A stretch of DNA of 24,936 nt from an uncultured Thermoleophilia bacterium. GTDB taxonomy: Bacteria > Actinomycetota > Thermoleophilia > Gaiellales > F1-60-MAGs149. Each line of letters opens with the position of its first letter. Within the stretch, counting starts at the first letter, position 1. This document shows positions 6,196 through 24,695 of the stretch, piece by piece. A program made the position numbers and the translations under genes. The notes below the pieces were generated by a model that worked only from the letters and a program-made list of their open reading frames with translations, ran no database searches and was not told where the DNA came from. Where the stretch lies: the NCBI GenBank assembly GCA_902806305.1, contig CADCWC010000218.1, positions 1-24,936 on the forward strand. The letters are read 5' to 3'.

Positions 6196-6584
6196 GCACG
6201 ATCGGCTCCGATCGCGAGCTGCGCCTCGCGGCCTCGGCGCTGCCCCCTGCGGGCGAGATCCGGATGGTCGAGCTCGGCCGGCACCGCATCGGGCTCTTCC
6301 GGGTGGGCGACGAGGTGCACGCGCTCGCCGACCGCTGCCCGCATCGCGGCGCGCCGCTCTGCTCGGCGGGCGACGTCGTGACCGGCATCGAGCGACGGCC
6401 CGACGGCCGCCTCGAGCTCGGCCCGGCGGGCGCGCTCGTGCGCTGCCCGTGGCACAAGTGGGACTTCGACATCGCGAGCGGCGAGTGCGTCGTCGAGCCG
6501 CGCCTGCGTGTCCGCCGCTACCCCGTGCGCCACGACGGCGACGACGTGGTCGTGAGCCTCGACGGCGGGCTCGACCGGCCGTAG
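6192..6584 (+). CDS. Rieske [2Fe-2S] ferredoxin
   Basis: CPHRGAPL ... RCPWHKWDFD (CxH...CxxH); GTG start overlaps the upstream TGA (GTGA); 130 aa. Confidence 0.93.
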   Translation: MSTIGSDRELRLAASALPPAGEIRMVELGRHRIGLFRVGDEVHALADRCPHRGAPLCSAGDVVTGIERRPDGRLELGPAGALVRCPWHKWDFDIASGECVVEPRLRVRRYPVRHDGDDVVVSLDGGLDRP

Positions 6585-7148: not shown

Positions 7149-8717
7149 ATGCCGGCGAGGAGTACGGTGCGGGACGGCGCCGCGAACCGGGTGGAGACGT
7201 ACGTGACGACGCACTTCGAGCCCGTCTGGAACGCCGTCCAGCGGGTCGAGCCAGTGCGGCGTCGGGTCAACCGCGTCCTGGTCAACCGAGCCATCGCGAA
7301 GCTCCCGACCCGCCCGAACCCGCTGTCGACGAAGGCCGACTACACGTCGTGGGACTCGCTCACGGATCGTCGGTTCGACAGTCGGCACCTGCCGCCCGCG
7401 CCGGCGCGGAACGGCGGCGGGCCGAGCGTCGAGCAGGCCGCGGACCTCTTCCGGCGCGATGGCGAGATGGTGCCGTGCGAGAAGTCGACGGTGCTGTTCT
7501 CGTACTTCGCGGCGTGGTTCACCGACGGGTTCCTGCGCAGTGACCGCTCGGAGCCGCGGGACATGCGCCGGAACGACTCGAACCACGAGATCGACCTGAC
7601 CCAGCTCTACGGCGTGCGCACCGCGGAGACCGACCTCCTGCGTACGTTCGAGGGTGGCCGCCTGAAGAGCCAGATCCTGGAGGGGGAGGAGTACCCGCTC
7701 TTCCTCTGCGAGGGCGGCGAGGTCAAGCCCGAGTTCCGTGGCCTGACGGTCGTGCGCTGGGAGCAGCTCTCCCGCGAGCAGCGGGACGGGCTGTTCGCCA
7801 TGGGCAGCGACACCTCGAACCTCCACCTCGGCTTCCTGATGCTCGGCGTGCTGTTCCTGCGCGAGCACAACCGCCTCGCCGACGCGCTCCGCCGCGAGTA
7901 CCCCGGCTGGGACGACGAGCGGCTGTTCGGGACGGCCCGCAACATCCTCACGGTCGTGCTCATCAAGCTCGTGGTCGACGAGTACATCAACCACATCACG
8001 CCGTACCACTTCCGGTTCACCACCGACCCGACGTCGCTCGGCAACGCACCGTGGATGCGGCCGAACTGGATGGCCGTCGAGTTCAACCTGCTCTACCGGT
8101 GGCACAGCATGGTCCCGTCGACGTTCCGGATCGGCGGCCGCGACGTCGCCATCGACGACACGCTCTTCAACACCCGGCTGCTGGTCGAGCGCGGCCTGGG
8201 CGGGCACTTCGAGGACGCGACCGACCAGCCCGCGGGCCGGGTGGGCCTGTTCAACACCGAGGCCTACCTGCGTGACGCCGAGGTGGCGAGCATCCGACAG
8301 GGTCGGGAGGTCCGGCTCGCGTCCTACAACGACTAACGCGAGGCCTGCCGATTCCCGCGCGTGACGGCGTTCGAGCAGATCTCGTCCGACGAGCGCGTCC
8401 GCCGCGGCCTGCGGGACGTCTACGGCCACGTCGACGAGATCGAGTTCTACGTGGGGCTGTTCGCGGAGGACCGGCGCCCGAACTCGGTGCTGCCGTCGCT
8501 CATCGGACGGATGGTCGGGATCGACGCCTTCTCCCAGGCCTTCACGAACCCACTGCTCGCGCCGCGGATCTACACGGCGGCCACGTTCTCGCCGCTCGGG
8601 ATGGAGGTCATCCGCACGACGCGGACGCTCTCGGACGTGGTGCACCGCAACCTGCCGCCCGGTTCGCCGCGCCACCGCGTCGGCATGACGCGAAGCGACT
8701 GGCGGCGCGTCTCCTAG
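7149..8717 (+). pseudogene. Cyclooxygenase-like animal-type heme peroxidase/fatty-acid dioxygenase interrupted by an in-frame TAA at 8334-8336
   Basis: ORFs 7149-8336 and 8361-8717 share a frame. Read-through gives ...SYND*REACRFPRVTAFEQIS..., matching the COX N(E/D)YR...F.(S)F..(L/I) motif. Also IDLTQLYG, LFLREHNRL, WDDERLF.TAR.I, EFNLLYRWH, YG.VD.IEFYVGLFAE. The full product would be 522 aa. Confidence 0.85.
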
Positions 8718-9215: not shown

Positions 9216-9263
9216 CCGCGTCCTGGCGCCCCTCCGGTTCAGCCGAGCGGCGCCAGGACGCGG
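9216..9263. terminator. 15-bp perfect inverted repeat between convergent genes (likely bidirectional terminator)
   Basis: CCGCGTCCTGGCGCC (9216-9230) / GGCGCCAGGACGCGG (9249-9263), 18-nt loop containing the flavin reductase stop codon. Confidence 0.55.
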
Positions 9264-9841
9264 ACGAGCGGGTCGTTCAGGTCCTCGTCGTCCTCGAGCG
9301 AGAGCGGCCCGCCCTTGACGGCCAGGGCAGGCAGGCGCGGCAGCATCCGCAGCGCGCTCTCGTGGAACAGCAGCGGGGTCTCGTCGGCGCGGCCGCAGCG
9401 CTCGACGAGGCCGAACATCACGTCGTGGTCACCGACCCGGACCACCTCGTGGAGCTTGCAGACGAGGAGGGCGAGCCAGTGGTCGAGGATCGGCACGCCC
9501 TCCTCGTCGAGGTGATGGGAGACCGCGTCGAAGCGAGGCGCGTGGAAGCCGACGAACGCGCGCGCCGAGGAGATCTGGTCGTGAGCCAGCACGTGGATGG
9601 CGAACCGGCCCGAGGTCTTCGCCGCCTCGCAGGTGCGCGCGCCGATCTGCGAGCAGACGAGCACGATCGGCGGGTCGAGCGACACGCTGGTGAACGAGTT
9701 GGCCGTCATACCGCAGAGGGTGCCGTCCTCGGCCGCGGCCGAGACGATCGTCACCCCCGTCGGGTACGAGCTCATCACGGAGCGGAACGTGGCCGGGTCG
9801 AAGGCGTCGCCCAGCGAGGAGAGGTCGGACATGGACGTCAT
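9239..9841 (-). CDS. Flavin reductase family protein (HpaC/DszD-like)
   Basis: FR.VMS.YPTGVTIVS, GMTANSFTSVSLDPP.VLVC, GDHDV.FG.V, PLLF; the start may be at 9832 instead. Confidence 0.92.
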   Translation of the reverse strand: MTSMSDLSSLGDAFDPATFRSVMSSYPTGVTIVSAAAEDGTLCGMTANSFTSVSLDPPIVLVCSQIGARTCEAAKTSGRFAIHVLAHDQISSARAFVGFHAPRFDAVSHHLDEEGVPILDHWLALLVCKLHEVVRVGDHDVMFGLVERCGRADETPLLFHESALRMLPRLPALAVKGGPLSLEDDEDLNDPLVRVLAPLG

Positions 9842-9935: not shown

Positions 9936-11450
9936 TCAGTGGACGCCGGTGCCGGTCAGGACGCGCTCCTCGTCGGGCGTCCGTGGCGCGGGCATTCGCA
10001 GCGTCAGCTTCGACTTGTCCTCGACGATCACCCGGTAGGCGAAGAAGGCGAGCGACATCGCGAGGACGAAGACGCCGACCAGGAGCTCCTTGTACTCGCC
10101 GTAGCCGGTGAGCTTGAAGGAGAGCGACCCGACGACGAGGATGATGACGTCGTAGACGAGCAGGACGGCGGCGATCGGCACCCACGCCGGTCCGACGCGC
10201 AGGGGCCGCGGCCACGCCGGGCGGTCCCGGCGCAGCAGCAGGAAGGCGGAGACGGCCGCCACGTGGGCGAACACGTAGCCGAGGTTCGACATCGTCAGGA
10301 TCTGGATCACGGCCGTGGGGCCGGCGAACAGGATCGTGACCGCGATGTTCATGACGGCGTCCAGGGTCATCGCGTTCCCGGGCACATGCCGTCGGTTGGC
10401 CTTGCCGAGCCAGCGCAGCGTCATGTCCGCCCGCGAGATGCCGTAGAGGGCACGCGACCCGTCCATGGTCGCCGTGTTCATCGACAGCAGGATGCCCGCG
10501 CAGAGCAGGATCACCGCGACCGACGTGAACCCCGTCCCGAGGATCGCCTCGAGGGCGGTCGTGTAGAACGAGTAGGCGTTCTCGACCGTGATGTTCTGGT
10601 CGCCGACGATGCCGACCGCGCCGAGCGGCAGCAGGCCGTAGACGAGGATGCCGAACACCGCGGCGGCCCGCAGCGCCTTCGGCGTGTCGTTCACCGGGTC
10701 CTTGTACTCGGCCGCGAACGTGGCGCAGCACTCGAAGCCGTACGCCGACCAGCACATGATGTAGAGCCAGGCGATCACCAGGCGCAGGCCGTTGTCGCCG
10801 CCGAAGCTGCCCCAGTCGACGTTGTTCGAGAGGTTGTCGGCGCTCCAGTCGCCCGTCAGGTAGGGCAGGAACATCAGGATCGCGAGCGGGATCAGGAGCA
10901 GCGCGCCCGTGATGTACGAGACCCACACCGCCGGGCGGACGCCCATGATGTTCGACAGCCAGAGCGCGATGATCAGGAAGATCGCGACGAAGATCGGGAA
11001 CGTGAAGGTCACGTCGACGATGCCGAGGCCGAGCGTGCGGTTCCAGCCGGACTCCGGGTCCGCGGTCCCCTCGAAGAACTGCGCCTGGATCAGGCCGCCG
11101 ATGATGATGCCGTTGACGGAGAGGACGACCGACCAGCCGAGCCAGTACCCGAAGGCGGCCATCGGGCCGACGAACGACGCGTAGCGCTTCCAGCCCTCGT
11201 GGGCGTAGAAGGCGATGCCGCCCGCGCGGTCCGGGAACATCGTCGACATCTCGGAGTAGATGACGTTGTGCAGGGCGCCGACGCAGACCGCGATCAGCCA
11301 CACGATCACCGCGCCCCAGCCGCCGAGCGACACGACCGAGAACCCGAGACCCGTCAGCAGGAACGCCGGATTCGCCATCGCGACGACGAAGCCGTCGAAC
11401 CACGACATTGCCCGAGCGAGTTCGCCGTCCTCTACCTCTGCAACCGCCAT
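9936..11450 (-). CDS. APC-family amino acid/amine permease
   Basis: About 12 hydrophobic segments; E..T.FPDRAGGIA, GYWLGW, WSAYGFE....FAAEYKDP..DTPKAL, DGSRALYG.S, LRR..P.WPRP; GGAGAAGG RBS; 504 aa. Confidence 0.92.
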   Translation of the reverse strand: MAVAEVEDGELARAMSWFDGFVVAMANPAFLLTGLGFSVVSLGGWGAVIVWLIAVCVGALHNVIYSEMSTMFPDRAGGIAFYAHEGWKRYASFVGPMAAFGYWLGWSVVLSVNGIIIGGLIQAQFFEGTADPESGWNRTLGLGIVDVTFTFPIFVAIFLIIALWLSNIMGVRPAVWVSYITGALLLIPLAILMFLPYLTGDWSADNLSNNVDWGSFGGDNGLRLVIAWLYIMCWSAYGFECCATFAAEYKDPVNDTPKALRAAAVFGILVYGLLPLGAVGIVGDQNITVENAYSFYTTALEAILGTGFTSVAVILLCAGILLSMNTATMDGSRALYGISRADMTLRWLGKANRRHVPGNAMTLDAVMNIAVTILFAGPTAVIQILTMSNLGYVFAHVAAVSAFLLLRRDRPAWPRPLRVGPAWVPIAAVLLVYDVIILVVGSLSFKLTGYGEYKELLVGVFVLAMSLAFFAYRVIVEDKSKLTLRMPAPRTPDEERVLTGTGVH

Positions 11451-12010: not shown

Positions 12011-13273
12011 GTGCTGCTCGCGCTGACGAACGCCCGCGTCTTCACGGCGACGGGCGAGCCCGCGCTCGCGTCGGGCGTCGTCGTGGTGGAGGACGCCCGG
12101 ATCCGCTCCGTCGACCCCTGGCCGACCGAGCTCCCGGAGGGCTGCGTCGCCGTGGACCTCGCGGGCCGGACGCTCCTGCCCGGCTTCGTCGACGCCCACG
12201 TGCACCTCGTCTACCGGGAGGGCCTGGACGACTGGTACACGTTCGAGCTCGCCACGCCGCTCGAGGCCGCCGCCGTCGACGCGACGATCAACGCCGGTCG
12301 GCTGCTCGAGATGGGCATCACGTCGGTGCGTGACGTCGGCACGCGCGGCAACATCGCCGTGGTGCTGCGGGACGCGATCCGGGGCGGCCGGCTGGGTGGG
12401 CCGCGCGTCCGCGCGTCGAAGCAGATCATCTCCGTCTCGGGCGGTCTCACGGATGTCCACCCGAGCCACCTGCCGATCGACGGGCGGCACGCCGCGACGA
12501 CCGGCGAACGGGTGACGGGGCCGTGGGAGGCCCGCGACGCGGTCCGCCGTCAGGTCAAGGACGGCGTCGACTGGATCAAGGTCGAGGCGAGCGGCACGTT
12601 CAACAGCCCGTACTCGCCCGGCGATCGCGAGACGATGTCGGCCGAGGAGCTCCGGGCGATCGTGGACGAGGCCTCCGACAAGGGCCGCCCCGTCGCCTGC
12701 CACGCCGAGTCGCGACGGAGCATCCTGCGGGCCGCCGCCGCTGGCGTGCGGACGATCGAGCACGCCGTCGACCTGGACGACGCGGCCGTCGAGGCCGTCC
12801 TCGAGGCCGGCGCGGCGATCTGTCCGACGATGGGGATCTACCGCAACCTGGCCGTCCGCGGCCGTGAGTTCGGGTTCGCCGACGAGGTGGTGGAGCGCAA
12901 CCTGGCCAATCACCGCCGCCACGTGGAGTCGATCCGCCGGGCCCACCGCGCGGGGCTGACGATCATCGCCGGGAGCGACGCCGGCTCGTCCCGGTTCCCG
13001 CACGACGGCGCGCTGCTGCGGGAGATCTGCCTCTACGTCGAGCTGGTCGGGATGACCGCGGGCGAGGCGCTCGTGACCGCGACCCGCGCGGCCGCGACGG
13101 TGATCGGGCTCGGCGACGAGGTCGGCACGATCGAGGCGGGCAAGCGGGCCGACCTCGTCGTGATCGCCGGCGATCCGCTCGGGCGCATCACGACGCTGAC
13201 CGACCCGGGCGCCGTGGAAGCTGTGCTGCAGGACGGCCGCGTCGTCGCGGGGGCCCTCCCCGGAATGGGCTGA
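12011..13273 (+). CDS. Metal-dependent amidohydrolase (prolidase/imidazolonepropionase-like subgroup)
   Basis: LLPGFVDAHVHL (HxH), G.TSVRDVG, WIKVEASG (putative carbamylated Lys), CHAES, IEHA, AGSDAG, G.IE.GKRADLVV; 420 aa. Confidence 0.92.
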   Translation: MLLALTNARVFTATGEPALASGVVVVEDARIRSVDPWPTELPEGCVAVDLAGRTLLPGFVDAHVHLVYREGLDDWYTFELATPLEAAAVDATINAGRLLEMGITSVRDVGTRGNIAVVLRDAIRGGRLGGPRVRASKQIISVSGGLTDVHPSHLPIDGRHAATTGERVTGPWEARDAVRRQVKDGVDWIKVEASGTFNSPYSPGDRETMSAEELRAIVDEASDKGRPVACHAESRRSILRAAAAGVRTIEHAVDLDDAAVEAVLEAGAAICPTMGIYRNLAVRGREFGFADEVVERNLANHRRHVESIRRAHRAGLTIIAGSDAGSSRFPHDGALLREICLYVELVGMTAGEALVTATRAAATVIGLGDEVGTIEAGKRADLVVIAGDPLGRITTLTDPGAVEAVLQDGRVVAGALPGMG

Positions 13274-13325: not shown

Positions 13326-14723
13326 TCAGGCGGGCGAGCCGCCGTTCGATGAGCCGTCGGCCTCGCCGAGCAGGCGCTCGGCCAGCTTGCGCTTCTCCTC
13401 GGGACCGAGCTTCTTGATCTCGTTCTCCATCGCGCGCGTGTTGACGACCTGGTTCCAGTAGTCGAGCGAGTCGTAGCCGAGCAGCGCCGTCTTGCCCACG
13501 AACTGGCGCAGCACCTCGTTCGTCGGGCCCATGACCCAGCCCGCCTTGCCGTCGCGCAGGTAGCGCTCGATGTCGAGCGGCTTCTTCTTGTAGCCCGTGC
13601 CGCCCGTGCAGTGCAGCATCTTGTCGACGACCCGGGCGACGTTCTTCGCGGCCCGGAACTTGATCTGCCACAGGAACGGCAGGTAGTCCGCGCGGGCGAG
13701 CTCGCCGACCGGCGGATTGCGTCGCGCGTCGTCCGTGACCTTGTCGAGCGCCTGGGCGACCGAGAACGTGAACGCACGGGCCGAGTTCGTCTCGATGATC
13801 GCCTCGCCGACGGCGTCCTGGATCGTCGGGTAGTCGCAGACCCGCAGGCCGACGTCCTTGTGCGTCTTGCGGGTCGTGTGGGAGATCGCGATGTCGATCG
13901 CGCCGAGCGCGATGCCGCTCCAGACGCCGGAGGACCCGATCAGGAAGTTCGGATCGACGGACTCGTCGTTCGAGGCGGCGCCGTCACCGATCGGACCGAC
14001 GAGCTGCTGCTCGGGCACGAAGCCCCAGTCGACGAGCAGGGAGCCGGACTGGTTGCCCCGCAGGCCGAGGGCGTCCCACTCCTGCGGCTCGGCCTGGATC
14101 TGCGAGGCGTCGATCAGGAAGACGGACAGGTTCGAGTAGTCGCCGCCGTAGTCGGGCGACGTCGTCTGGCAGACGTAGAAGTCGGCGAAGCCGCCCGAGG
14201 TCGTCCACGACGCCTTCTTCAGCACCTCGAAGCCGCCCTCGACCCTACGGGCGCCCGACGCCATCGGGTACCAGAAGTGGGAGCCGGTCTCGGGGTCCGA
14301 GTAGGAGAGCGTGCCGATCAGCCCGTCCTTGACCTTCTTCAGGTAGTTCTCGACGAAGTAGTCCGTCTGGCGCAGGCGGAGCGTCTCGACGGCGCCCGTG
14401 TGCATCACGTAGCACATGGCACAGGAGGCGTCGCCGTAGCGCGCGATCGTCTCCGTGACCCACGCGTAGAAGACGTGGTTCTGGCCCAGCCCGCCCCACT
14501 CCTTGGGCAGCATGACGCCGAGGAAGCCGTCCGGCCCGAGCGCCTCGAGGCTCTCGCGCGGGAACGTCAGCGTGGCGTCGTTGTGACGCGCCCGCGGCCG
14601 GATCTCCGTCTCGCAGATCTCCCGAAGGCGCGCCAGGAGTCCGATCTGCTCCTCGTTCAGGAACCAGACCGGGTCGAACATCGGGTCGAGTCCGTTCTTG
14701 GTCTCCTCGGCCACCGCGGCCAT
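13326..14723 (-). CDS. Acyl-CoA dehydrogenase-fold flavoprotein (possibly a flavin-dependent monooxygenase)
   Basis: D....FP.E.L..LG..G.LG..LP.EWGGLG, SDPETGSH, K.SW.TSGG.AD, W..LGLRG..SG, GGTGY....IERYLRD; GAAGGAGG RBS; 465 aa. Confidence 0.88.
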   Translation of the reverse strand: MAAVAEETKNGLDPMFDPVWFLNEEQIGLLARLREICETEIRPRARHNDATLTFPRESLEALGPDGFLGVMLPKEWGGLGQNHVFYAWVTETIARYGDASCAMCYVMHTGAVETLRLRQTDYFVENYLKKVKDGLIGTLSYSDPETGSHFWYPMASGARRVEGGFEVLKKASWTTSGGFADFYVCQTTSPDYGGDYSNLSVFLIDASQIQAEPQEWDALGLRGNQSGSLLVDWGFVPEQQLVGPIGDGAASNDESVDPNFLIGSSGVWSGIALGAIDIAISHTTRKTHKDVGLRVCDYPTIQDAVGEAIIETNSARAFTFSVAQALDKVTDDARRNPPVGELARADYLPFLWQIKFRAAKNVARVVDKMLHCTGGTGYKKKPLDIERYLRDGKAGWVMGPTNEVLRQFVGKTALLGYDSLDYWNQVVNTRAMENEIKKLGPEEKRKLAERLLGEADGSSNGGSPA

Positions 14724-14780
14724 ACGTCTCCTCCTTCGTCACCACCTGACCGCTCGTCAGGCGACTCATCGCCGGCGCCG

Positions 14781-14786
14781 ATCGTA
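14781..14786 (-). promoter_or_regulatory. -10 element (TACGAT) of the ACAD-fold gene
   Basis: TACGAT on the minus strand, about 57 nt before ATG 14723; no clear -35, consistent with an activator-dependent promoter. Confidence 0.4.
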
Positions 14787-14943
14787 CCGTCGGGCCAAGG
14801 TGGAGCATACGTGCGGAAGCCACACCGCGGACGGCCCGGGGGTGGGCGCCTCCCCGGGTTGCCGACCGGGGTGGGGTCGCCTACGCTCGGCCCCCGCAGG
14901 TCCCTCGGAGGACCGGCCCACGAGACACACACACGGAGGATGC

Positions 14944-16419
14944 ATGGGAGCGATCGAGAGCGGGCTCCAGCTCGAGAACCTGGTGTCGACCGTGCTCGCG
15001 TCGCCGAGGGTGGCCCCGCCGCCCGCGACGCTCGGCGAGGCCCGGAACGCGCCGGGGCGTGACGCGCAGATCGCCGACATCCAGGCCCGGATCGAGCGCG
15101 AGGGGATCCAGTACGTCTTCTTCCAGCAGGTGTCGGTGTCCGGGCACGTCAACGGCAAGGGCGTCGTCTCGGACTTCTTCGCCCAGGTGGCGAAGAACGG
15201 CTACCAGCTCGTCTACGGCGCCACGGCCGACCTGTTCCTCGACCGGCACGAGAACTACATCGGGTTCGGCCCGCACACCTCCGAGCTCGCGGCGATCGCC
15301 GACCTCGACACGTTCAGCGTGCTCCCGTGGGACCCGCGCGTGGCCCGCGTGTTCTGCGACTGCTACGACACGGAGACGGGCGGGCTGCTCGAGTCGGACC
15401 CCCGGCAGAACCTGAAGGTGGTGGCCGACGAGGTCGAGGCCGAGCTGTCGGAGCTGCTCGGCACGCAGGTCAGCTTCCTGTGCGGGATCGAGCCGGAGAT
15501 GATGTGGTTCGGGCAGAAGCCGTCGGGCGGCCAGGAGCCGATCGGGCTGACCAAGCCCTGGTGCTACCACATCAACCAGTTCGAGCAGCTGCGCGAGGTG
15601 ATCCTCGACGTCGTGGCCTACGGCAAGGCGCTCGGGCTGCGGATGAGCTACGGCGACCACGAGGACTCGCCGGGCCAGCTCGAGCTGAACTTCGCGTTCG
15701 ACCGCGCCTCGCGGACGGCCGACAACCTGACCACGTACCGCCAGATCTGCGCGGCGGTCGGCCGGAAGCACGGCCTGTTCCCGTCGTTCATGCCGAAGCC
15801 GTTCACGGGCGTGTCGGCGAACGGGGCGCACCACCACTTCACGCTCGTCGACGAGTCGGGTCGGAACGTCTTCTACGACCCGAACGGCCCGGCCACGCTC
15901 TCGGACGCGGGGCGGAGCTTCCTCGGCGGCATCCTCAAGCACTACCGCGCGCTGACCTGCGTCTCGGCGCCGACGGTCAACTCGTACAAGCGCTTCTTCG
16001 ACGAGGGCTTCTGGGCCCCGATCCACGCCGACTACGGCTGGCAGAACCGGACCTGCGCCGTGCGGGTGGCCGGCTCGGGGCGCTTCGAGTACCGCTCGGT
16101 CGACTCGGCCTGCAACCCGTACCTGACGCAGGCCGCGCTGCTGACCTGCGGGCTCGAGGGCATCCGCGACAAGATCGACCCCGGTCCGCCGCAGTCCGAG
16201 AACGTCTACGAGGTGCTCGACCGGGGCACCACGATCGGCCGCGTGCCGAACACGCTCGGCGAGGCCCTGGACGCGCTGCACGAGGACGAGACGGTCAGGG
16301 GGGCGCTCCGCGGGCACCTCTACGAGGTCTTCCGGCACTACAAGCGCGACGAGTGGGAGCGCTTCTGCTCGGCCGTCACCGACTGGGAGCGCGACCAGTA
16401 CTTCGACGTCCTGCCGTGA
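14944..16419 (+). CDS. gmaS: Gamma-glutamylmethylamide synthetase-like glutamine synthetase-family protein (GlnT/GmaS)
   Basis: GIEPE, DHEDSPGQLELNF, FMPKPF.G.SANGAHHH, YKR....WAP....YG..NRT..VR, RFEYRS.D..CNPYL. The DHED motif and adjacency to glxBCD/mgsABC favour GmaS over GlnA. GGAGG RBS; 491 aa. Confidence 0.8.
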   Translation: MGAIESGLQLENLVSTVLASPRVAPPPATLGEARNAPGRDAQIADIQARIEREGIQYVFFQQVSVSGHVNGKGVVSDFFAQVAKNGYQLVYGATADLFLDRHENYIGFGPHTSELAAIADLDTFSVLPWDPRVARVFCDCYDTETGGLLESDPRQNLKVVADEVEAELSELLGTQVSFLCGIEPEMMWFGQKPSGGQEPIGLTKPWCYHINQFEQLREVILDVVAYGKALGLRMSYGDHEDSPGQLELNFAFDRASRTADNLTTYRQICAAVGRKHGLFPSFMPKPFTGVSANGAHHHFTLVDESGRNVFYDPNGPATLSDAGRSFLGGILKHYRALTCVSAPTVNSYKRFFDEGFWAPIHADYGWQNRTCAVRVAGSGRFEYRSVDSACNPYLTQAALLTCGLEGIRDKIDPGPPQSENVYEVLDRGTTIGRVPNTLGEALDALHEDETVRGALRGHLYEVFRHYKRDEWERFCSAVTDWERDQYFDVLP

Positions 16420-16617: not shown

Positions 16618-17541
16618 ATGTGCGGGATCGCCGGGATCATCTACCGCGACGGGGAGCACGACGTGGGGCGCGACCTCACGCGCATGCTCCAGTCGATGAA
16701 GCACCGCGGGCCGGACTCCACCGGCTTCGCGCTCTACGGGCCGGTCGGTCCGCAGATCGTCGTGCGCTACACGCTCGCCGACGCGAACGACCCGCGCGGC
16801 ATGCACTTCGACGAGCGCATGGTCGGCAACCGACGTGAGGTCTCCTCGCGCCTGCGCAGCGCGGGCGCCGTCATCGAGGAGCTCGAGCAGGAGACGGCCT
16901 ACGCCGACCGCGCGGTGCTGACCTACGACGGCGACCTGAAGACGCTCACCGACCTGCTCGAGGACATCCAGGGCTGCGAGGTCCTGTCGCTCGGCCACTC
17001 GCTCGAGATCGTCAAGGACCTCGGCGACGCCGAGGCCGTCTGCTCGCAGTACGGCCTGGAGACGTTCCGCGGCACGCACGCCATCGGCCACGCGCGGATG
17101 GCCACCGAGTCCGAGGTCGACATCTCGGGCGCCCACCCGTACTGGGCCTACCCGTTCCCGGACGTGGCCGTGGTCCACAACGGCCAGCTGACGAACTACT
17201 TCCAGTGGCGCCGCCGCCTGGAGCGGAGCGGCCACCGGTTCCAGTCCGAGTGCGACTCGGAGATCATCGCCGTCTACGTGGCCGAGCGGATGACGGAGGG
17301 CTACACCCTCGAGGAGGCCATGCGGCAGAGCCTCGAGGAGCTCGACGGCGTCTTCACCTACATGTGCGTGACCGCGGACGCCCTCGGCGTGGCGAAGGAC
17401 GAGATGGCCGCCAAGCCGCTCGTGCTCTACGAATCGGACCAGCTCGTGGCCGTGGCCTCCGAGGGCACGGCGATCGAGACGCTGACCGACGGCGACACGT
17501 ACGACCCCTACGAGGGCGAGGTGATGGTATGGCAGCGGTAG
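16618..17541 (+). CDS. mgsA: Class II glutamine amidotransferase-like subunit (N-methylglutamate synthase subunit A, GlxB)
   Basis: N-terminal MCGIAG (Ntn Cys), HRGPDSTG, HAIGHARMATES, HP, VHNGQLTNY, SECDSE, LDG.FT; 307 aa. Confidence 0.85.
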   Translation: MCGIAGIIYRDGEHDVGRDLTRMLQSMKHRGPDSTGFALYGPVGPQIVVRYTLADANDPRGMHFDERMVGNRREVSSRLRSAGAVIEELEQETAYADRAVLTYDGDLKTLTDLLEDIQGCEVLSLGHSLEIVKDLGDAEAVCSQYGLETFRGTHAIGHARMATESEVDISGAHPYWAYPFPDVAVVHNGQLTNYFQWRRRLERSGHRFQSECDSEIIAVYVAERMTEGYTLEEAMRQSLEELDGVFTYMCVTADALGVAKDEMAAKPLVLYESDQLVAVASEGTAIETLTDGDTYDPYEGEVMVWQR

Positions 17542-18317
17542 GCGAGCGCGCGGTCAGCTACGACGCACGCGGCCTGGCGGAGCCGAACGCGGTCGCGCCC
17601 GAGACGGCGGTCGTCGACGGCCAGACGGCCGAGCTCGACGCGGCCGACCTCTCGATCCGACAGATCAACCTGGAGCTCCGGCGCCTCGTCTACGGGCTCG
17701 GCGTGACCGACGTCGTGGTCCGCAACCCCGGCTCGAAGCACTCGCTCGGCGTGGGCATCCTGACGCGCTGCCGGATCCGCTTCGAGGGCAGCCTCGGCTA
17801 CTTCGCCTGCGGGCTGCTCGACGGGCCCGAGGTGCACATCACGGGGCGCGTGGGCTGGGCGGCGTGCGAGAACATGATGTCCGGCGTCGTGGTCATCGAG
17901 GGGAACGCCGGCTCCCAGACGGGGGCGGCGCTGCGCGGCGGCGACCTCGTGGTCAAGGGCCGCGCCGGCGCGCGCTCGGGCATCGACCAGAAGGGCGGCA
18001 CCATCATCACGATGGGCAGCGTCGGGGCGATGACGGGCTTCATGATGCAGCGCGGCCGCCAGGTCATCTGCGGCGACGCGGGCCCGGGGCTCGGCGACTC
18101 GATGTACGACGGGACGATCTACGTGGCCGGCAAGGTCAAGGCCCTCGGGATCGACTGCGTGCCCGGTGAGTGGACGGACGCCGACACCGAGTTCATCGAG
18201 CGCAAGTTCCGCATCTACGACCTCGGCTCGCCGCCGTCGTTCGACAAGTTCGTCTGCGGCAAGAAGCTCTACAACTACGACAGCCTCGAGCCGGCCGAGC
18301 GCAAGCTCGTCCTCTAG
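17529..18317 (+). CDS. mgsB: GXGXG/FmdC-like subunit (N-methylglutamate synthase subunit B, GlxC)
   Basis: GSLGYFACG, G.VGW...ENMMSG, GNAGSQTGA.LRGG, G.R.GI..KGG, MTGFMMQRG, GDSMYDG.IYV; overlaps the mgsA end by 13 nt; 262 aa. Confidence 0.87.
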   Translation: MAAVGERAVSYDARGLAEPNAVAPETAVVDGQTAELDAADLSIRQINLELRRLVYGLGVTDVVVRNPGSKHSLGVGILTRCRIRFEGSLGYFACGLLDGPEVHITGRVGWAACENMMSGVVVIEGNAGSQTGAALRGGDLVVKGRAGARSGIDQKGGTIITMGSVGAMTGFMMQRGRQVICGDAGPGLGDSMYDGTIYVAGKVKALGIDCVPGEWTDADTEFIERKFRIYDLGSPPSFDKFVCGKKLYNYDSLEPAERKLVL

Positions 18318-18331
18318 GACCGGGAGACCAC

Positions 18332-19798
18332 ATGGCGGCCACCGACGACATCCGGCAGCACCCGGACCGGGCCAACATCGACCAGCAGCGCAGCGTGCTC
18401 GGGCACTCGCAGATCTTCACGCCGGAGGTCATCGACGACATCCACGTGAAGTCGGAGCTCGGCCGCTACCGGATGCGCGGCTTCTCGATGTTCAAGAAGA
18501 TCCCGCACTGGGACGAGCTGATGTTCATGCCCGGCACGCTCACGCGCTTCGTGATCGAGGGCTACCGCGAGAAGTGCGAGACGAAGACCGTGCTCGGCGC
18601 GCGCTTCGCGAAGAACCCGCTGACGCTCGACATCCCGATCTACATCACGGGCATGAGCTTCGGCGCGCTCTCGATCGAGGCGAAGATGGCGCTCGCCAAG
18701 GGCGCCTCGATGGCCGGGACGGCGACCTGCTCGGGCGAGGGCGGCATGATCCCGCCCGAGCGCGAGCTCTCGACCAAGTGGTACTACCAGGTCATCCAGA
18801 GCCGGTACGGGTTCAACCCGCACCACCTGATGCTGGCCGACGCGGCCGAGTTCTTCATCGGCCAGGGCTGCAAGGTCGGGCTCGGCGGGCACCTGATGGG
18901 CCAGAAGGTCACGGAGCAGGTGGCCGAGATGCGCTCGCTGCCCGTCGGCATCGACCAGCGCTCGCCCGCCCGGCACCCGGACTGGCTCGGCCCGGACGAC
19001 CTGTCGCTGAAGATCCAGGAGATCCGCGAGGCGACCGACTACCGGATCCCGATCCAGCTGAAGCTCGGCGCCGCGCGCGTCTACGACGACGTGCGGATGG
19101 CGGCCAAGTGCGGCCCCGACATCATCTACCTGGACGGCGCCGAGGGCTCGACGGGCGCCGGGCCGCACACGGCGACCGAGGAGACCGGCATCCCGCTGAT
19201 GGCGGCCATCCCCGAGGCGCGGCGCGCCCTCGAGGACGTCGGCCTGGCCGACGAGATCGACCTCGTGGTGGCGGGAGGCATCCGGAACGGCGGCGACATC
19301 GCCAAGTGCATCGCGCTCGGGGCCAAGGCCGTGGCCATCGGCCACTCGGCGCTGATCGCGCTGAACTGCAACAAGGAGATCCCGGGCGTCACCGACTACG
19401 AGGGGACGATCGGGGTCAAGGCCGGGCGCTGCTACCACTGCCACACGGGCCGCTGCCCGGTCGGCGTGACGACGCAGGATCCGGAGCTGCGGGCCCGCCT
19501 GGAGGTCGACGCCGCCGCCGAGCGGGTCTACAACTTCCTGCACGCGATGACGCTCGAGCTCCAGATGCTGGCCCGGGCCTGCGGCAAGACGGACGTGCAC
19601 AGCCTCGAGCCCGAGGACCTCTGCGCACTGACCGTCGAGGCCTCGGCGATGGCCAAGGTGCCGCTCGCGGGCACGACCTACATCCCGGGCGTGACCGAGC
19701 AGCGCACGCTCGACGAGATCAAGGGCCTCGTGCAGGGCCTCGTGCCCCAGCCGCACGGCGAGTCCGACCGCGAGTTCGTGCGACCGGCGGCCGACTGA
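18332..19798 (+). CDS. mgsC: FMN-binding glutamate synthase family subunit (N-methylglutamate synthase subunit C, GlxD)
   Basis: ITGMSFGALS, SGEGGM, SRYGF, IGQGCKVGLGGHL.G.KV, SPARHPD, DG.EG.TGA, GGIRNG.D.AK..ALGA, CYHCHTGRCP.G..TQD ([3Fe-4S] motif); 488 aa. Confidence 0.9.
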   Translation: MAATDDIRQHPDRANIDQQRSVLGHSQIFTPEVIDDIHVKSELGRYRMRGFSMFKKIPHWDELMFMPGTLTRFVIEGYREKCETKTVLGARFAKNPLTLDIPIYITGMSFGALSIEAKMALAKGASMAGTATCSGEGGMIPPERELSTKWYYQVIQSRYGFNPHHLMLADAAEFFIGQGCKVGLGGHLMGQKVTEQVAEMRSLPVGIDQRSPARHPDWLGPDDLSLKIQEIREATDYRIPIQLKLGAARVYDDVRMAAKCGPDIIYLDGAEGSTGAGPHTATEETGIPLMAAIPEARRALEDVGLADEIDLVVAGGIRNGGDIAKCIALGAKAVAIGHSALIALNCNKEIPGVTDYEGTIGVKAGRCYHCHTGRCPVGVTTQDPELRARLEVDAAAERVYNFLHAMTLELQMLARACGKTDVHSLEPEDLCALTVEASAMAKVPLAGTTYIPGVTEQRTLDEIKGLVQGLVPQPHGESDREFVRPAAD

Positions 19799-20361
19799 TG
19801 GCCCCCGACGAGCACATCCTGAACGACCCGGACCAGATGCACCACGACCCGCACGCGGGCGGTCACGCCACGGCCGAGGGCGGCCCGGGCGGCGACGAGC
19901 AGCACGCGCAGAGCGTGACGGGGCACCACCCCGAGCGCGCGCAGTGGACGATGGGCACCTCGATCGACTCGGAGGCGCTCTGGGGCCGACGGTTCCCGTA
20001 CCAGGAGGACCTGTCCCTGGTCGAGGACGTCGACCTGGTGGCGGCGACGCCCGGGGCCGACATCAACTGGCTCGAGGACGTCGACCTCCTCCAGGAGGAG
20101 GGCATCCCGGCCGTCTTCGACCGCTACTCCAACTGCTTCCTCAAGATCCACTTCCCGATCCCGGCGGGGCGCGAGAACGAGATCGCCCGCAAGGTCCTGA
20201 TCAAGCACCTGCAGTCGGGCAACTCCTACGGGATCCGGATGAAGGAGAAGCACGCCAAGTTCGCGCAGCCGGAGCTCGGGCCGTGGGTGGCGAACTCGCG
20301 GACGGTGGGGGAGAACTACACCCCGCCGGTGCTCGAGGGCTGGGAGCCGCCCGTCCACTGA
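19798..20361 (+). CDS. Hypothetical protein with His-rich N-terminus, translationally coupled to mgsC
   Basis: TGATG overlap at 19796-19800; GC3-rich codons; followed by a terminator hairpin; 187 aa; no family recognised. Confidence 0.8.
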   Translation: MAPDEHILNDPDQMHHDPHAGGHATAEGGPGGDEQHAQSVTGHHPERAQWTMGTSIDSEALWGRRFPYQEDLSLVEDVDLVAATPGADINWLEDVDLLQEEGIPAVFDRYSNCFLKIHFPIPAGRENEIARKVLIKHLQSGNSYGIRMKEKHAKFAQPELGPWVANSRTVGENYTPPVLEGWEPPVH

Positions 20362-20637: not shown

Positions 20638-21414
20638 TCAGGCCCCGAGCGCCCGCGAGACCTCGCGGCCGGCCTGGACCAGCGCGGGCCGGGCGACGTC
20701 CATCGCGTCCGGCGTGAAGCGGGCGGCGGGCCCCTGCAGCCCGAGGACGGCCGCCAGGTCGCCGCGCGCGTCGAGGACGGGGACGGCCACCGCGTTGAGG
20801 TCCGGCTCGCGCTCGCCGACGGCGCGGGCCACGCCCTCGAGCCGGATCCGTTCGACCTCCCGCCGCAGCGCCGCCGGGTCGGTGATCGTCCGGGACGTGT
20901 AGCCCGTCAACGGGCCGTCCGGGTCCGCCACGACCCCGTCACGACCGAACGCGAGCATGACCTTGCCGACGGCCGTGGCGTGCGCCACGCTCGGTCGGCC
21001 GACGCGGGCCACGGAGATCACCGTCCCGGCCCGGCCGGGCACGAAGTCGGCGGTCACGGCCTCGTCGCCCGCGGGCAGGGACAGCGTGGCCGTCTCGCCG
21101 TGGCGGTCGACGAGGTCCTCGAGGAACGGCCGCGCCAGCGCGCGGACGTCCAGACGGGCCAGGACGGCGTTCGCGAGCTGCAGCACGCGCGCGCCGAGAC
21201 GGTAGCGGCCGCTGTCCGGCAGGTGCTCCACGTAGCCCGCCGCGGTCAGCGTGGCCAGGACGCGCGACACGGTGGCGGCGTTGATCGCGGTGCGGCGGCT
21301 GATCTCCGAGGTGCCGAGCTCCCCGCCGGGAGCGGCGCCGAGGGTGTCCAGGACCTGCGTCGCCCGTGCGACCGCCGCCAGTGTCCGAACGGCCGGGACT
21401 CCCGTCCGGCCCAC
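20638..21414 (-). CDS. IclR-family transcriptional regulator
   Basis: LAAVARATQVLD.L...G.SEISRRT.IN.ATVSRVL.TL...GYV, AHATAVGKVMLA, AVAVPV; 258 aa. Confidence 0.93.
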   Translation of the reverse strand: MGRTGVPAVRTLAAVARATQVLDTLGAAPGGELGTSEISRRTAINAATVSRVLATLTAAGYVEHLPDSGRYRLGARVLQLANAVLARLDVRALARPFLEDLVDRHGETATLSLPAGDEAVTADFVPGRAGTVISVARVGRPSVAHATAVGKVMLAFGRDGVVADPDGPLTGYTSRTITDPAALRREVERIRLEGVARAVGEREPDLNAVAVPVLDARGDLAAVLGLQGPAARFTPDAMDVARPALVQAGREVSRALGA

Positions 21415-21508: not shown

Positions 21509-23308
21509 ATGAGCGCCGCCCCCCGCCCGTTCGACGTCCCGGTCGCCGTCCCCGCGCCGGACGTCGAGCTGCTCCATGACGTGGTGCGCGCGGTCTCGTC
21601 GAGCCTCGAGCTGCCGGTCGTGCTGAGCTCCGTCGTCGAGCTCGTCACGCGCGCCGTCGGGTGCCACGCCTGCTACGTCTTCCTCGCCGACCAGAGCGGC
21701 CGGATGGTGCTCGAGGCGTGCAGCTCCGAGCGCTACGCCGACTCCGTCGGCAAGGTGGTGCTCGAGCCGGGCGAGGGCCTCGCCGGGTGGGTGGCGCGCC
21801 GCCGGATGCCCGTCTTCATCGCCGAGGATGCGCTCGCCGACCCGCGCGTCCGGATCCTCGACCAGTTCGAGGAGCACAAGTACCAGTCGCTCGTCTCGCT
21901 GCCGCTGATCGGCAAGGGCGGCGAGGTCTTCGGCGTCATCGCCGCCCACGGCGCCGCGCCGCGCGAGTTCACCGCCGCGGAGCAGCGCTTCCTGCTCTCG
22001 AGCGCCGCCCTGGCCGCCGGGGCGATCGAGAACGCCCGGCTGTACGGCGAGACCTCGCGGCGCGTGGACGTCCTGGAGCGCCTCGTGCAGCTGTCGCGCA
22101 GCATCGCCGAGGGCGAGACGATCGACGTGCTGCTCCGCGACGTCTGCTCGCGCCTCCTGCCTCTTCTCGGCGCGGCGTCGTGTCGGCTCTTCCTGCGCGA
22201 CGACGACCACGCCCGGCTGCGGCTGCGCGCCTACGCGCCGCCGGGCAGCTGCGACGGCGGTGTGACGTCGATCGGCATCGAGGACGTCGGAGCGGCGGTC
22301 GGGCCCGACCGGCACGGCGTCGAACGCGTCGCGCGCCTGCTCGGCGACGAGACGGCCCAGGCGGCCGAGTGGCTCTTCCAGCCGCTGCTCGTCTCGGGTG
22401 AACTGCTCGGCCTGCTCGCCGTCCGCGGTCGTGGCGGCCGGCGCTTCGGGTCCGAGGACCGCGACCTCGCGGCGACCGCGATGGCCCAGGCCGCCGTCGC
22501 GGTCGAGAAGATCCGGCTGCTCGAACGGCTCGAGGAGCGGAACCTGATCAAGGACTTCTTCGACGACCTCGCCGCCGGTGACAGCGCGGCGGCCCGCGGC
22601 CGGGAACGGCGACTGAGCTGCGATCTGGCCACGCCGCGGGTCGTCCTGATCGCGACCCGCTACGGACCACACGCGGCCGGCGCGGACGAGAGCGGCTGGG
22701 CCGCCGCCCTCGAAGCCCGCCTCGCCGTGCGCTTCCCGGCCGCGCTCTTCGACCGCAGCGAGCACGGCCTCCGCGCGCTGCTCCCGGTCACGCCCGCGTC
22801 CGAGGCGGAGGCGCGGGCCTGGGTGCGGGAGGCGCACGCCGCCGTGTCGTCCGAGGACCTGCCGGTCGCGGTCGGCCTGTCCGAGGTCTGTACCGGCCGA
22901 CCGGGCTACGTGGCGGGCTTCGAGGAGGCGAACCTCGCCCTCTCGGCGGCCGCCGTCCTGCACGGCAGGCCGTCCGTCATGGGGTTCGACGAGCTCGGCC
23001 CGTACAAGTACCTGCTGCGGCTGCCGCGCGGCACGCGCGATCGCCACTGCGACCGGCTGCGTCCGCTGCTCGAGTACGACCGGGACCACGGGTCGCAGCT
23101 CTTCCTGACCCTCGAGGAGTACTTCCGGCGCCGCGGCCGCGTGGCCGCCACGGCGGCGAGCCTCTACATCCACCCGAACACGCTCCGCCAACGCCTGGGC
23201 CGGATCGCCGCGCTCACCGGTCTCGACGTCGAGCGCGAGGACCCGCTCACGCTCGAGCTCGCCATGAAGCTCGTGCGCCTCGAGGACTCCGTCACCCGCG
23301 GCACCTGA
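21509..23308 (+). CDS. GAF-GAF-PucR/CdaR-type transcriptional regulator
   Basis: Two GAF-like segments (GEGLAGWVA...PVFI..DA..DPR; SL..LPL..GV) plus C-terminal L..TLE.Y....G.V..TA..LYIHPNTLRQRL.RI..LTG HTH; start trimmed to MSAAPRPF; 599 aa. Confidence 0.9.
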   Translation: MSAAPRPFDVPVAVPAPDVELLHDVVRAVSSSLELPVVLSSVVELVTRAVGCHACYVFLADQSGRMVLEACSSERYADSVGKVVLEPGEGLAGWVARRRMPVFIAEDALADPRVRILDQFEEHKYQSLVSLPLIGKGGEVFGVIAAHGAAPREFTAAEQRFLLSSAALAAGAIENARLYGETSRRVDVLERLVQLSRSIAEGETIDVLLRDVCSRLLPLLGAASCRLFLRDDDHARLRLRAYAPPGSCDGGVTSIGIEDVGAAVGPDRHGVERVARLLGDETAQAAEWLFQPLLVSGELLGLLAVRGRGGRRFGSEDRDLAATAMAQAAVAVEKIRLLERLEERNLIKDFFDDLAAGDSAAARGRERRLSCDLATPRVVLIATRYGPHAAGADESGWAAALEARLAVRFPAALFDRSEHGLRALLPVTPASEAEARAWVREAHAAVSSEDLPVAVGLSEVCTGRPGYVAGFEEANLALSAAAVLHGRPSVMGFDELGPYKYLLRLPRGTRDRHCDRLRPLLEYDRDHGSQLFLTLEEYFRRRGRVAATAASLYIHPNTLRQRLGRIAALTGLDVEREDPLTLELAMKLVRLEDSVTRGT

Positions 23309-23337: not shown

Positions 23338-24648
23338 TCAGCTCCAGGGGTAGGGGCTGTGCGAGACCGGGTGCAGGTCGCCGGTCGCGAAGCGCTCGTA
23401 GCGGAACGGGTAGAGCAGCGACGAGTGCTCGCCGAGCAGCACGCGGGCGACCTCCCGTCCGACGCCGATCATCTTGTAGCCGTGGTTCGAGTCGGCGATC
23501 ACGTAGACGTTCGGGCGCATCTCGTCGAAGACCGGGAAGTTGTCGACCGTGAACGCCCCGACACCGCCCGACCGGACGGTCTTGTAGGCCGAGCGCATCC
23601 CCGAGAAGCGCTCCATGCAGTGCGAGAGCGCCGCGACCCACATGTCGGCGAAGCCCGGCTCCACGGAGGAGCTCGGGTACGGGTCGACCTGGAAGTCGTG
23701 TCCCTTCGGGAGCGGTGACGCGCCGCCCTGCACGCCGTGGCGGTCCCGCTTGAAGTAGATGCCCCACAGCTCGTCCGTGATCAGCCGGCCGTCGTCGTCG
23801 TGGAGCGGCGCATCGGAGTCGACGTGGATCACCGGCGGGATCCCGCCCTCGGCGGTGGCGAACAGCGACGGGTCCATCGTGATCTCGCCCTCCTGGAGGT
23901 ACCAGAAGGTCCACATCTCGCGGTCGCGGTGCACCTCGCCCTCGGGTGTGCGCACGTCGAGGCGCTGCGGCAGCCCGAGCATCCCCCAGATCTCCTTGAC
24001 CCACGGTCCGGCGCCCACGACCACCTGCTCGACCTGGATCGAGCCGCCGTCGGTCTCGACCGTCGTGACGGCACCGGAGTTGTCGAGCTCGAACCCGGTC
24101 ACCCGGACGCCCTCGAGGATCTGGACGCCCTCGCCGCGGGCCTTCCCGGCCAGCCCCTGGATGGCGTCGACGTTGTAGGCGAACCCGCCCTTGTGCTCGT
24201 GCAGGCAGACCGTCACGCCGCGGCCGCGCCAGTCCGGGTAGAGGCCCCGCATGTAGTCGCGGACCTCGCGCTCGCCCACGATCAGGTCCGAGGGGTAGCC
24301 GATGCGCTGCTGCCGCTCGTGCACCTCGATCAGGTCCTGCTCCTGGACCTGCGGGCCGAGCGCCATGTAGCCCACGCTGTTGTAGGCGTACGCCGCCGGG
24401 TCCTCCTCCCAGACCTCGACGTTGGCGGCCATCAGCTCGGCCATCGCGGGCTGGTAGTAGTTGTTGCGGACGACGCCGCACGCGATCCCCGAGGCCCCCG
24501 CGGCCACGCCGGTCTTGTCCACGACCAGGATGTCCTCGCCGCCGCCCTGGCCGCGGGCCTTCAGCTCCTTGGCCAGGTGGTAGGCCGTGGAGAGGCCGTG
24601 GACGCCCGCGCCGATGACGAGGTAGCGCGTGGACTTGGGGACCTGCAT
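23338..24648 (-). CDS. FAD-dependent oxidoreductase, DAO/sarcosine oxidase beta (SoxB/MgdA)-like
   Basis: YLVIGAGVHGLSTAYHLA, VVDK....GASG.ACGVVR.NY, VTG, VVVGAGPW, T.DNFPVFD, GYK...VG; GGAGG RBS 8 nt before ATG 24648; 436 aa. Confidence 0.88.
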   Translation of the reverse strand: MQVPKSTRYLVIGAGVHGLSTAYHLAKELKARGQGGGEDILVVDKTGVAAGASGIACGVVRNNYYQPAMAELMAANVEVWEEDPAAYAYNSVGYMALGPQVQEQDLIEVHERQQRIGYPSDLIVGEREVRDYMRGLYPDWRGRGVTVCLHEHKGGFAYNVDAIQGLAGKARGEGVQILEGVRVTGFELDNSGAVTTVETDGGSIQVEQVVVGAGPWVKEIWGMLGLPQRLDVRTPEGEVHRDREMWTFWYLQEGEITMDPSLFATAEGGIPPVIHVDSDAPLHDDDGRLITDELWGIYFKRDRHGVQGGASPLPKGHDFQVDPYPSSSVEPGFADMWVAALSHCMERFSGMRSAYKTVRSGGVGAFTVDNFPVFDEMRPNVYVIADSNHGYKMIGVGREVARVLLGEHSSLLYPFRYERFATGDLHPVSHSPYPWS

Positions 24649-24667
24649 GGTGTCGACCTCCGGCCGT

Positions 24668-24695
24668 ATTGCCATGACGGCAATCGTGTTGCCAT
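24668..24695. promoter_or_regulatory. Candidate operator: ATTGCC-N5-GGCAAT inverted repeat plus second TTGCCAT half-site
   Basis: Perfect inverted repeat at 24668-24684; TTGCCAT direct repeat at 24669 and 24689 (20-bp period); AT-enriched, just upstream of the oxidoreductase RBS. Confidence 0.55.

Follow-up and report, generated by a model that had tools for sequence, protein, structure and literature searches.

The 465-residue protein encoded at positions 13326-14723 of contig CADCWC010000218.1, a 24,936-nucleotide stretch from an uncultured Gaiellales bacterium (hereafter the window, meaning the whole stretch analyzed), has the fold of the acyl-CoA dehydrogenases (ACADs) and lacks their catalytic glutamate. 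Upon comparison of its gene neighborhoods, phyletic distribution and domain fusions, we regard its family as a well-supported candidate for a new enzyme in the aerobic breakdown of methylated amines, a pathway already known. It is probable that an ACAD-derived, reductase-dependent flavin monooxygenase of this family, non-homologous to DmmDABC and Tmm, is the enzyme that turns dimethylamine into methylamine (or, less likely, trimethylamine into its N-oxide) in Actinomycetota, Chloroflexota and some Proteobacteria. More specifically, and tentatively, the genomic evidence leads us to propose that the window protein serves as the oxygenase component of a flavin monooxygenase that depends on a reductase and breaks dimethylamine down to methylamine and formaldehyde.

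The gene lies on the minus strand, with its ATG at 14723 placed 5 nt downstream of a GGAGGAG resembling a ribosome-binding site and its stop at 13326. All three Pfam ACAD domains (PF02771/PF02770/PF00441, those of the ACADs proper MCAD, SCAD and IVD) were matched in the product, the N-terminal domain with 62 bits, the middle domain with 23 bits and the C-terminal domain with 37 bits. An AlphaFold2 model built from a 57-sequence alignment (pLDDT 92.8, pTM 0.90) showed the three-domain ACAD fold of N-terminal alpha, middle beta and C-terminal alpha domains, and residues ∼11-420 of the model were superposed by VIA-align on solved ACADs over ∼375 residues (Z 45-51, root-mean-square deviation 1.6-2.4). 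To locate the catalytic positions, we used HMMER alignments with three solved ACADs (3pfd, 2dvl and 8i4p). Within the motif YLRDGKAGWVMGPTNE (residues 388-403), V-M-G-P-T aligned under I-Y-E-G-T, which puts Gly399 at the position of MCAD Glu376 against all three structures. Similarly, VDPN-F of the segment SVDPNFLIG (residues 255-263) aligned under LDHTRP, and Asn259 thereby falls on MCAD Thr255, the established equivalent of IVD Glu254 (compare the T255E/E376G mutant of MCAD, PDB 1egc/1egd). The initial annotation of this DNA, made from the sequence by eye, had called the protein an ACAD-fold enzyme without the catalytic Glu at either the MCAD or the IVD/LCAD position, and the alignments bear this out.

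Gly399 and Pro400 are invariant in 24 of 24 aligned family members, so that the loss of Glu at 399 does not stem from a sequencing accident; in more distant relatives, Ala or Gly occupies this position. Position 259 varies across the same members (N/W/F/I/K/Y), and residue 259 therefore cannot be the catalytic base. The missing Glu is confirmed as a property of the family and not an error. Other residues are invariant, namely His108, His149, Asp253, Glu254 and Asp257, and on the basis of sequence these are candidate acid/base residues. The family's own invariant blocks include D-P-E-T-G-S-H-F-W-Y-P, L-R-G-N-Q-S-G, N-D-E-x-V-D-P and W-V-M-G-P-T-N-E. Compared with MCAD, SCAD and IVD, the window protein shares the three-domain fold and, as judged by eye, keeps the ACAD-type FAD-contact motifs (W-T-T-S-G-G and G-G-x-G-Y), but it has neither catalytic Glu and carries both an extra conserved N-terminal segment and a conserved, family-specific C-terminal extension of ∼45 residues.

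To place the gene in its genomic context, the window's neighbors and the two halves of Tdm were compared against 85 loci, and ∼245 loci were examined overall. The tree of the family from the compared loci contains two sister clades, clade A (the window's own, Gaiellales) and clade B (Gaiellaceae, Solirubrobacterales, Conexibacteraceae, Carbonactinospora and others); a rooting of clade A inside clade B, with loss of tdm, was considered and is unsupported. Residue 259 is N/F/I/K in clade A and W in clade B. The family's recurrent neighbors are gmaS-mgsABC, Tdm, a TmoP-like permease, a SoxB-like oxidase and a flavin reductase of the HpaC/StyB type. Counted within 10 kb at loci with at least 8 kb of flank (clade A, n = 27; clade B, n = 25), the features are distributed as follows.

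GS-like gene: 25/27 in clade A, 7/25 in clade B
mgs genes: 23/27 in clade A, 7-10/25 in clade B
PucR regulator: 21/27 in clade A, 0/25 in clade B
Permease: 22/27 in clade A, 16/25 in clade B
Flavin reductase: 11/27 in clade A, 25/25 in clade B
Tdm-type DUF1989+GCV_T fusion: 0/27 in clade A, 24-25/25 in clade B

The clade B fusion is a true trimethylamine N-oxide (TMAO) demethylase (932 bits to the Paracoccus TDM, PDB 9q59) and lies directly 3′ of the ACAD gene on the same strand with a median gap of 42 nt. At some clade B loci (L066, L077 and L084) the genes form ACAD-Tdm-reductase-permease operons. A PhyH-like Fe(II)/2-oxoglutarate dioxygenase gene directly follows tdm in 24 clade B loci (for instance L095:14746-15621 (-)) and is also found in L102/L103; it has no NCBIfam match, and neither any clade A locus nor the genomes G001 and G002 contain it. 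Clustering of open reading frames (ORFs) across loci returned mostly shadow ORFs of high-GC genes and yielded only this PhyH-like gene and a fusion of the clade B reductase to a cNMP-binding domain. This fusion is frequent in clade B (L095:13769-14746 (-), L070:9439-10416 (-)) and unusual for the HpaC type. GCV_T, GFA and tetrahydrofolate genes are common near the ACAD gene.

One alternative is that the protein is a trimethylamine N-oxygenase, a non-homologous stand-in for Tmm of the flavin-containing monooxygenase (FMO) type, which together with the reductase would make TMAO for the adjacent Tdm. In clade B the ACAD gene sits in the canonical place of tmm, directly upstream of tdm on the same strand, and no FMO was found in ∼165 family loci. 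For a flavin hydroperoxide, the most natural and chemically simplest reaction is to N-oxygenate a tertiary amine, and amine N-oxygenases with the ACAD fold are known (KijD3, DnmZ and isobutylamine N-hydroxylase). The PhyH-like dioxygenase encoded after Tdm could then carry out the dimethylamine step. Against this alternative, a trimethylamine oxygenase should not occur without Tdm, and Tdm is absent from all 27 clade A loci as well as from G001, G002, G003, G037, G073 and G166. In clade A, TMAO would consequently be a dead end, yet the gene is tied there to gmaS-mgsABC and the TmoP-like permease. Moreover, transporters of the TmoP-like or OpuAC type can bring TMAO into the cell directly.

The phyletic pattern bears on the same question. 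Among 596 sampled Actinomycetota genomes, every Tdm-positive genome (25) contains the ACAD gene; where the ACAD gene occurs without Tdm, it is in each case close to gmaS. In the class sample of 251 genomes, the ACAD gene is present in 24, as one copy each, and Tdm in 19, all 19 with an adjoining ACAD gene; the carriers without Tdm are G000, G037, G055, G073 and G166, with G037, G073 and G166 being near-complete. A GmaS-like gene is found in 33 of the 251, including 23 of the 24 ACAD carriers. In the phylum sample of 351 genomes, the ACAD gene occurs in 10 and Tdm in 9, and these 9 are the ACAD genomes minus the window's own metagenome-assembled genome (MAG), which is 71% complete. Both the co-location and the co-occurrence of the gene with tdm, gmaS-mgsABC and a TMAO-type transporter are conserved. 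This nesting of Tdm within ACAD within GmaS is what a route from TMAO through dimethylamine to methylamine predicts if the ACAD-fold enzyme is the middle step.

The established enzymes are scarce in the same genomes. DmmD/HODM (PF11927) was detected in 4 of 251 class-sample genomes and in only 1 of the 24 ACAD carriers; if the ACAD-fold protein made TMAO, the step from dimethylamine to methylamine would be left without an enzyme in 23 of 24 carriers. Strong FMO matches were obtained in 31 of 251 genomes, only 3-4 of them ACAD carriers, and in family f2 no FMO was found in 42 genomes despite 14 that have both Tdm and ACAD, a point in favor of a trimethylamine enzyme. On the other hand, G168 and G233 combine a strong FMO (266-315 bits) with ACAD-Tdm, which would make an ACAD-fold trimethylamine oxygenase redundant. 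Three further clade A genomes (G001-G003) all lack Tdm and DmmD. Two of them, G001 and G002, are single-chromosome assemblies in which the FMO search gave a weak match of 60 bits (G001) and none (G002). As G001 and G002 have no Tdm, PhyH-like gene or DmmD, the ACAD gene together with the permease is the only visible feeder of GmaS in these genomes. Taken together, we consider it unlikely that the family oxygenates trimethylamine to TMAO.

Evidence for dependence on a reductase comes from co-location and from fusions. A search with P0121 yielded 80 metagenome contigs that define a third subfamily, in which the reductase gene is directly adjacent on the same strand in 15 of 39 loci and lies within 5 kb in 9 of the 11 loci with long flanks, where Tdm is within 5 kb in 8 of 11. 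Further out, three relatives with 35-47% identity (P0125, P0140 and P0132) have the ACAD-like domain fused to C-terminal FAD_binding_6 and NAD_binding_1 domains, the architecture of E. coli Fre and FNR-type NAD(P)H reductases, and keep the family motifs and the C-terminal extension. Two of these fused relatives are intron-bearing genes on eukaryotic scaffolds (L092:8001-24178 and L093:8001-16353), and one of the two, located on a scaffold of 13 Mb, neighbors a cuticle-protein gene (Chitin_bind_4). These fused forms may be self-sufficient enzymes of arthropod-like animals. Such repeated wiring to an NAD(P)H reductase suggests that the domain consumes reducing equivalents, which fits an oxygenase and not a dehydrogenase.

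This distinction matters since the protein could instead be a reductase-independent dehydrogenase or oxidase with tightly bound FAD, acting on a methylated amine to give an imine or dehydrogenating a thioester by means of a non-canonical base. Invariant Asp253, Glu254, Asp257 or His149 could serve as that base, and ACADs with a moved or missing base exist, cyclohexenecarboxyl-CoA dehydrogenase (7p98) having Y-T-G-T at the catalytic site. The second-best NCBIfam match of the window protein is a desulfinase family, and the closest relatives in sequence and structure are true ACADs. However, the reductase is co-located far more often than expected by chance and occurs fused to the domain in more distant relatives, the context is uniformly that of C1 and methylated-amine metabolism, and no CoA-ligase, electron-transfer flavoprotein or beta-oxidation genes recur in the ACAD-gene neighborhoods compared, in which the family also differs from ACADs proper. 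We therefore think it quite unlikely that the protein works as such a dehydrogenase or oxidase.

We compared the protein with the group D flavin monooxygenases, whose ACAD-fold branch comprises DszC, HsaA, C2-HpaH, SfnB, KijD3/DnmZ/ORF36 and isobutylamine N-hydroxylase. It shares with them a base-less ACAD fold and, as genomic partner, a small flavin reductase gene, located 3.5 kb away in the window, co-located across loci and fused in distant relatives. Kinship in sequence or structure with the characterized members DszC, HsaA, C2-HpaH and KijD3/DnmZ was not found. NCBIfam scores were 62 bits for SfnB, 53 for HsaA and 30 for DszC against cut-offs of 430-850. The initial annotation had read an RD..AG..M.P pattern as a likeness to KijD3/DnmZ-type nitrososynthases, but when residues 345-420 were searched alone, true ACADs were best (E 0.003-0.05) and DnmZ reached only E 1.2. 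The structural comparison that it had outlined likewise favored genuine ACADs, which ranked first in both Foldseek and VIA-align. Because all top structural matches are ACADs, the fold cannot decide between oxygenase and dehydrogenase. On our reading, a group D two-component monooxygenase would serve as a functional model for the window protein, which is not a demonstrable member of any characterized branch; should it be an oxygenase, it has a separate origin within the true ACADs. Judged by its missing catalytic base, it is not a competent ACAD either. The predicted flavin monooxygenase that draws on the reductase at 9239-9841 and feeds methylamine to GmaS thus agrees with all comparative tests, while its label as a group D, KijD3/DnmZ-like enzyme has to be dropped.

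The family itself is tight, widespread and uncharacterized. A word-indexed search returned 1,383 relatives at E ≤ 1e-10, of which the best 120 have 62-87% identity and a length of ∼466 residues, and are named at source only as 'AidB-like' or 'acyl-CoA dehydrogenase family'; labels in the Protein Atlas are limited to automatic ACAD or 'dibenzothiophene monooxygenase' assignments. An exhaustive search of 50%-identity representatives gave a tight clade (representative 596 bits), then a steep drop to a few distant relatives (240-434 bits) and to ordinary ACADs (<190 bits). Members occur in at least 569 species genomes, those nearest to the window being Gaiellales/Thermoleophilia MAGs. The best NCBIfam match is Rv1679/FadE16 (NF049984), at 179 bits well under the cut-off of 600 that defines membership. 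Relatives of that family (P0172 and P0182) share M-A-P-T in place of Y-E-G-T, but the family itself, with ∼385 residues, ∼33% identity and neither of the two extensions, stands apart. No functional paper on Rv1679/FadE16 was found in the literature searched, nor did full-text search return a paper on the window family, subscription journals being incompletely covered.

Within the window, the genes and regions that belong to or surround this amine island are as follows.

9239..9841, minus strand: NAD(P)H:flavin reductase of HpaC/StyB/HsaB type, 200 aa (Pfam Flavin_Reduct, 119 bits)
9936..11450, minus strand: APC-family permease, TmoP-like, 504 aa (Pfam AA_permease_2)
12011-13273, plus strand: amidohydrolase, Xaa-Pro-dipeptidase-like (260 bits, cut-off 500), convergent with the ACAD gene
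13326..14723, minus strand: ACAD-fold flavoprotein, proposed oxygenase component, 465 aa (Pfam, HMMER, AlphaFold2 model)
14724..14943, no strand: divergent intergenic region of 220 bp from the ACAD gene to gmaS (sequence read)
14944..16419, plus strand: GmaS-like type III glutamine-synthetase-family ligase, 491 aa (Gln-synt_C 294 bits, gln_synth_III 332 bits)
16618..17541, plus strand: MgsA-like glutamine amidotransferase subunit (Pfam GATase_6/7), likely start ATG 16618, N-terminus MCGIAG
17529..18317, plus strand: MgsB-like GXGXG subunit (Pfam GXGXG, start scan)
18332..19798, plus strand: MgsC-like subunit with FMN glutamate-synthase domain (Pfam Glu_synthase 305 bits, start scan)
19798..20361, plus strand: conserved 187-aa protein, translationally coupled to mgsC (no Pfam or NCBIfam match)
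20638..21414, minus strand: IclR-family regulator (Pfam IclR_C, HTH_IclR), recurring beside the reductase and DAO genes in related loci
21509..23308, plus strand: PucR-type regulator with GAF domains and HTH_30 (Pfam, start scan)
23338..24675, minus strand: SoxB-like FAD amine oxidoreductase of the DAO family, 445 aa (DAO 117 bits, soxB 72 bits)

The reductase is the second gene of the minus-strand permease operon, and its NCBIfam matches (StyB 121, HsaB 117 and HpaC-type 99 bits) all fall below cut-offs. The nearest named family of the permease is the TMAO permease TmoP of Methylocella, with 210 bits to TmaoPremMsil, below the family cut-off of 690, versus at most 64 bits to other transporters. 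The divergent arrangement of the ACAD gene and gmaS that had been annotated is real, gmaS starting at ATG 14944 behind a GGAGG. The co-occurrence with gmaS and the reductase that it led one to expect is seen in the clade counts above, for gmaS in clade A and for the reductase in all of clade B and part of clade A. Conversely, the amidohydrolase that had been placed in the amine island adjoins the ACAD gene at only one of 86 loci, that of the window, and we do not count it as a member of the module. Homologs of the 187-aa protein are encoded after mgsC at 21 of the 86 genome loci and at 12 of the 82 metagenome loci, making it a conserved accessory of this mgs operon type. The PucR-type regulator directly adjoins the ACAD gene in most clade A loci, and the SoxB-like DAO gene is found in 14 of 27 clade A and 18 of 25 clade B loci. 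A search for an operator or repeat shared among the ACAD-gene, gmaS, permease and DAO promoters returned only chance-level repeats in high-GC coding DNA.

From these genes we propose the following scheme. The TmoP-like permease would import the amine, and the reductase at 9239-9841 would deliver reduced flavin at the expense of NAD(P)H. Within the ACAD-fold protein, this flavin would react with O2 to form a C4a-(hydro)peroxyflavin that oxidizes dimethylamine. The likeliest chemistry would be N-hydroxylation followed by dehydration to N-methylmethanimine and its hydrolysis to methylamine and formaldehyde; direct hydroxylation of the alpha carbon would be an alternative. The methylamine would be captured by the neighboring GmaS and MgsABC, and in relatives that have Tdm, the dimethylamine released from TMAO by Tdm would be a substrate of the same enzyme. 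The ACAD-fold enzyme would then be a non-homologous replacement for DmmDABC. DmmDABC (of the haem/PAS HODM type) and the FMO-type Tmm occupy the same niche beside tdm, gmaS, mgsABC and TMAO transporters, but have no homology to the window protein, whose proposed cofactor is flavin provided by a separate flavin reductase.

Several observations weigh against a reductase-dependent dimethylamine monooxygenase, some of them also favoring the alternatives above. Flavin hydroperoxides normally N-oxygenate amines, and turning dimethylamine into methylamine needs an extra dehydration step. There is no flavin reductase within 10 kb at 16 of 27 clade A loci, as a reductase-independent enzyme would allow, and in G001 and G002 the best reductase homolog is far from the ACAD gene. 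The FAD-contact motifs kept in the sequence hint that the protein binds its FAD and does not use a diffusible flavin. The best sequence matches in the PDB are true ACADs (E 1e-27 to 1e-20), and the known ACAD-fold oxygenases DnmZ, KijD3, DszC and HsaA reach only E 1e-11 to 1e-7 (DnmZ 1e-11, KijD3 6e-9, DszC 1e-8) and are absent from the 50 best structural matches in Foldseek and VIA-align. The PhyH-like dioxygenase and the SoxB-like DAO are other candidates for the dimethylamine step, and L158 and G228 carry DmmD alongside ACAD-Tdm, as would be expected of a trimethylamine enzyme. Given the sister relationship of clades A and B, the nesting could arise from two functions or substrates, and the co-occurrence counts include related genomes, which are not independent samples.

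The protein could also act on a different local substrate, such as gamma-glutamylmethylamide, N-methylglutamate, methylamine itself (by N-hydroxylation) or another N-methyl compound yielding methylamine. The linkage to gmaS-mgsABC in clade A is tight, some family loci contain a gamma-glutamyl hydrolase of the Peptidase_C26 type, and hydantoinase genes adjoin the Chloroflexota family member. However, 10 GmaS-positive genomes of the class sample have no ACAD gene, which means that the N-methylglutamate route does not need it as a core component; several clade A loci contain MgdABCD-type genes alongside the ACAD gene; and its exclusive pairing with Tdm speaks for chemistry on TMAO/dimethylamine. 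We judge a substrate of this kind very unlikely, and give a similarly slim chance to the protein being none of the four things considered here.

Further arrangements were seen at other loci. At a Chloroflexota locus (L004:3756-11428) the family member comes after stand-alone DUF1989, permease and second ACAD-like (408 aa) genes, a gene for a PNPOx-type flavin protein and a GCV_T gene that also stands alone; the locus may represent a split Tdm together with two ACAD-fold enzymes. In probable alphaproteobacterial contigs, DAO, gmaS-mgsABC and GFA genes are followed by the ACAD gene, an OpuAC-type ABC transporter, the reductase and Tdm. In these contigs an Oxidored_FMN gene, absent from all other loci, comes after tdm (L102:21069-21410, L103:21096-21410); it could encode a trimethylamine or dimethylamine dehydrogenase (TMADH/DMADH)-type enzyme or an old yellow enzyme. 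A variant operon at L094:11418-16012 comprises the ACAD gene, a 398-aa protein without a Pfam match, GCV_T, the flavin reductase, a Peptidase_C26 of the gamma-glutamyl hydrolase type and a 2-hydroxyacid dehydrogenase. On the upstream side of the amine module, the window contains at 5107-6584 (+) an ORF with an Amidohydro_2 domain followed by one with a Rieske domain, and a further ORF at 7149-8336 (+) contains an animal-haem-peroxidase domain (100 bits), which is unusual for a bacterium.

Trimethylamine, TMAO, dimethylamine and methylamine are major currencies for nitrogen and C1 units as well as precursors of climate-active gases, and their aerobic breakdown has been charted almost entirely from Proteobacteria, through Tmm, Tdm, DmmDABC and GmaS/Mgs/Mgd. 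The sampled Actinomycetota possess Tdm and GmaS, DmmD is nearly always and Tmm usually absent from the carriers, and wherever Tdm occurs the ACAD gene is found too. If the proposed function is true, it would close a gap in the pathway in abundant soil lineages (Gaiellales, Solirubrobacterales and others) and add a new type of reaction to the ACAD fold. It would also provide a new marker gene and imply that surveys based on tmm and dmmD miss much of the turnover of methylated amines in soil, and it would offer a lead to the reductase-fused homologs in animals that accumulate TMAO.

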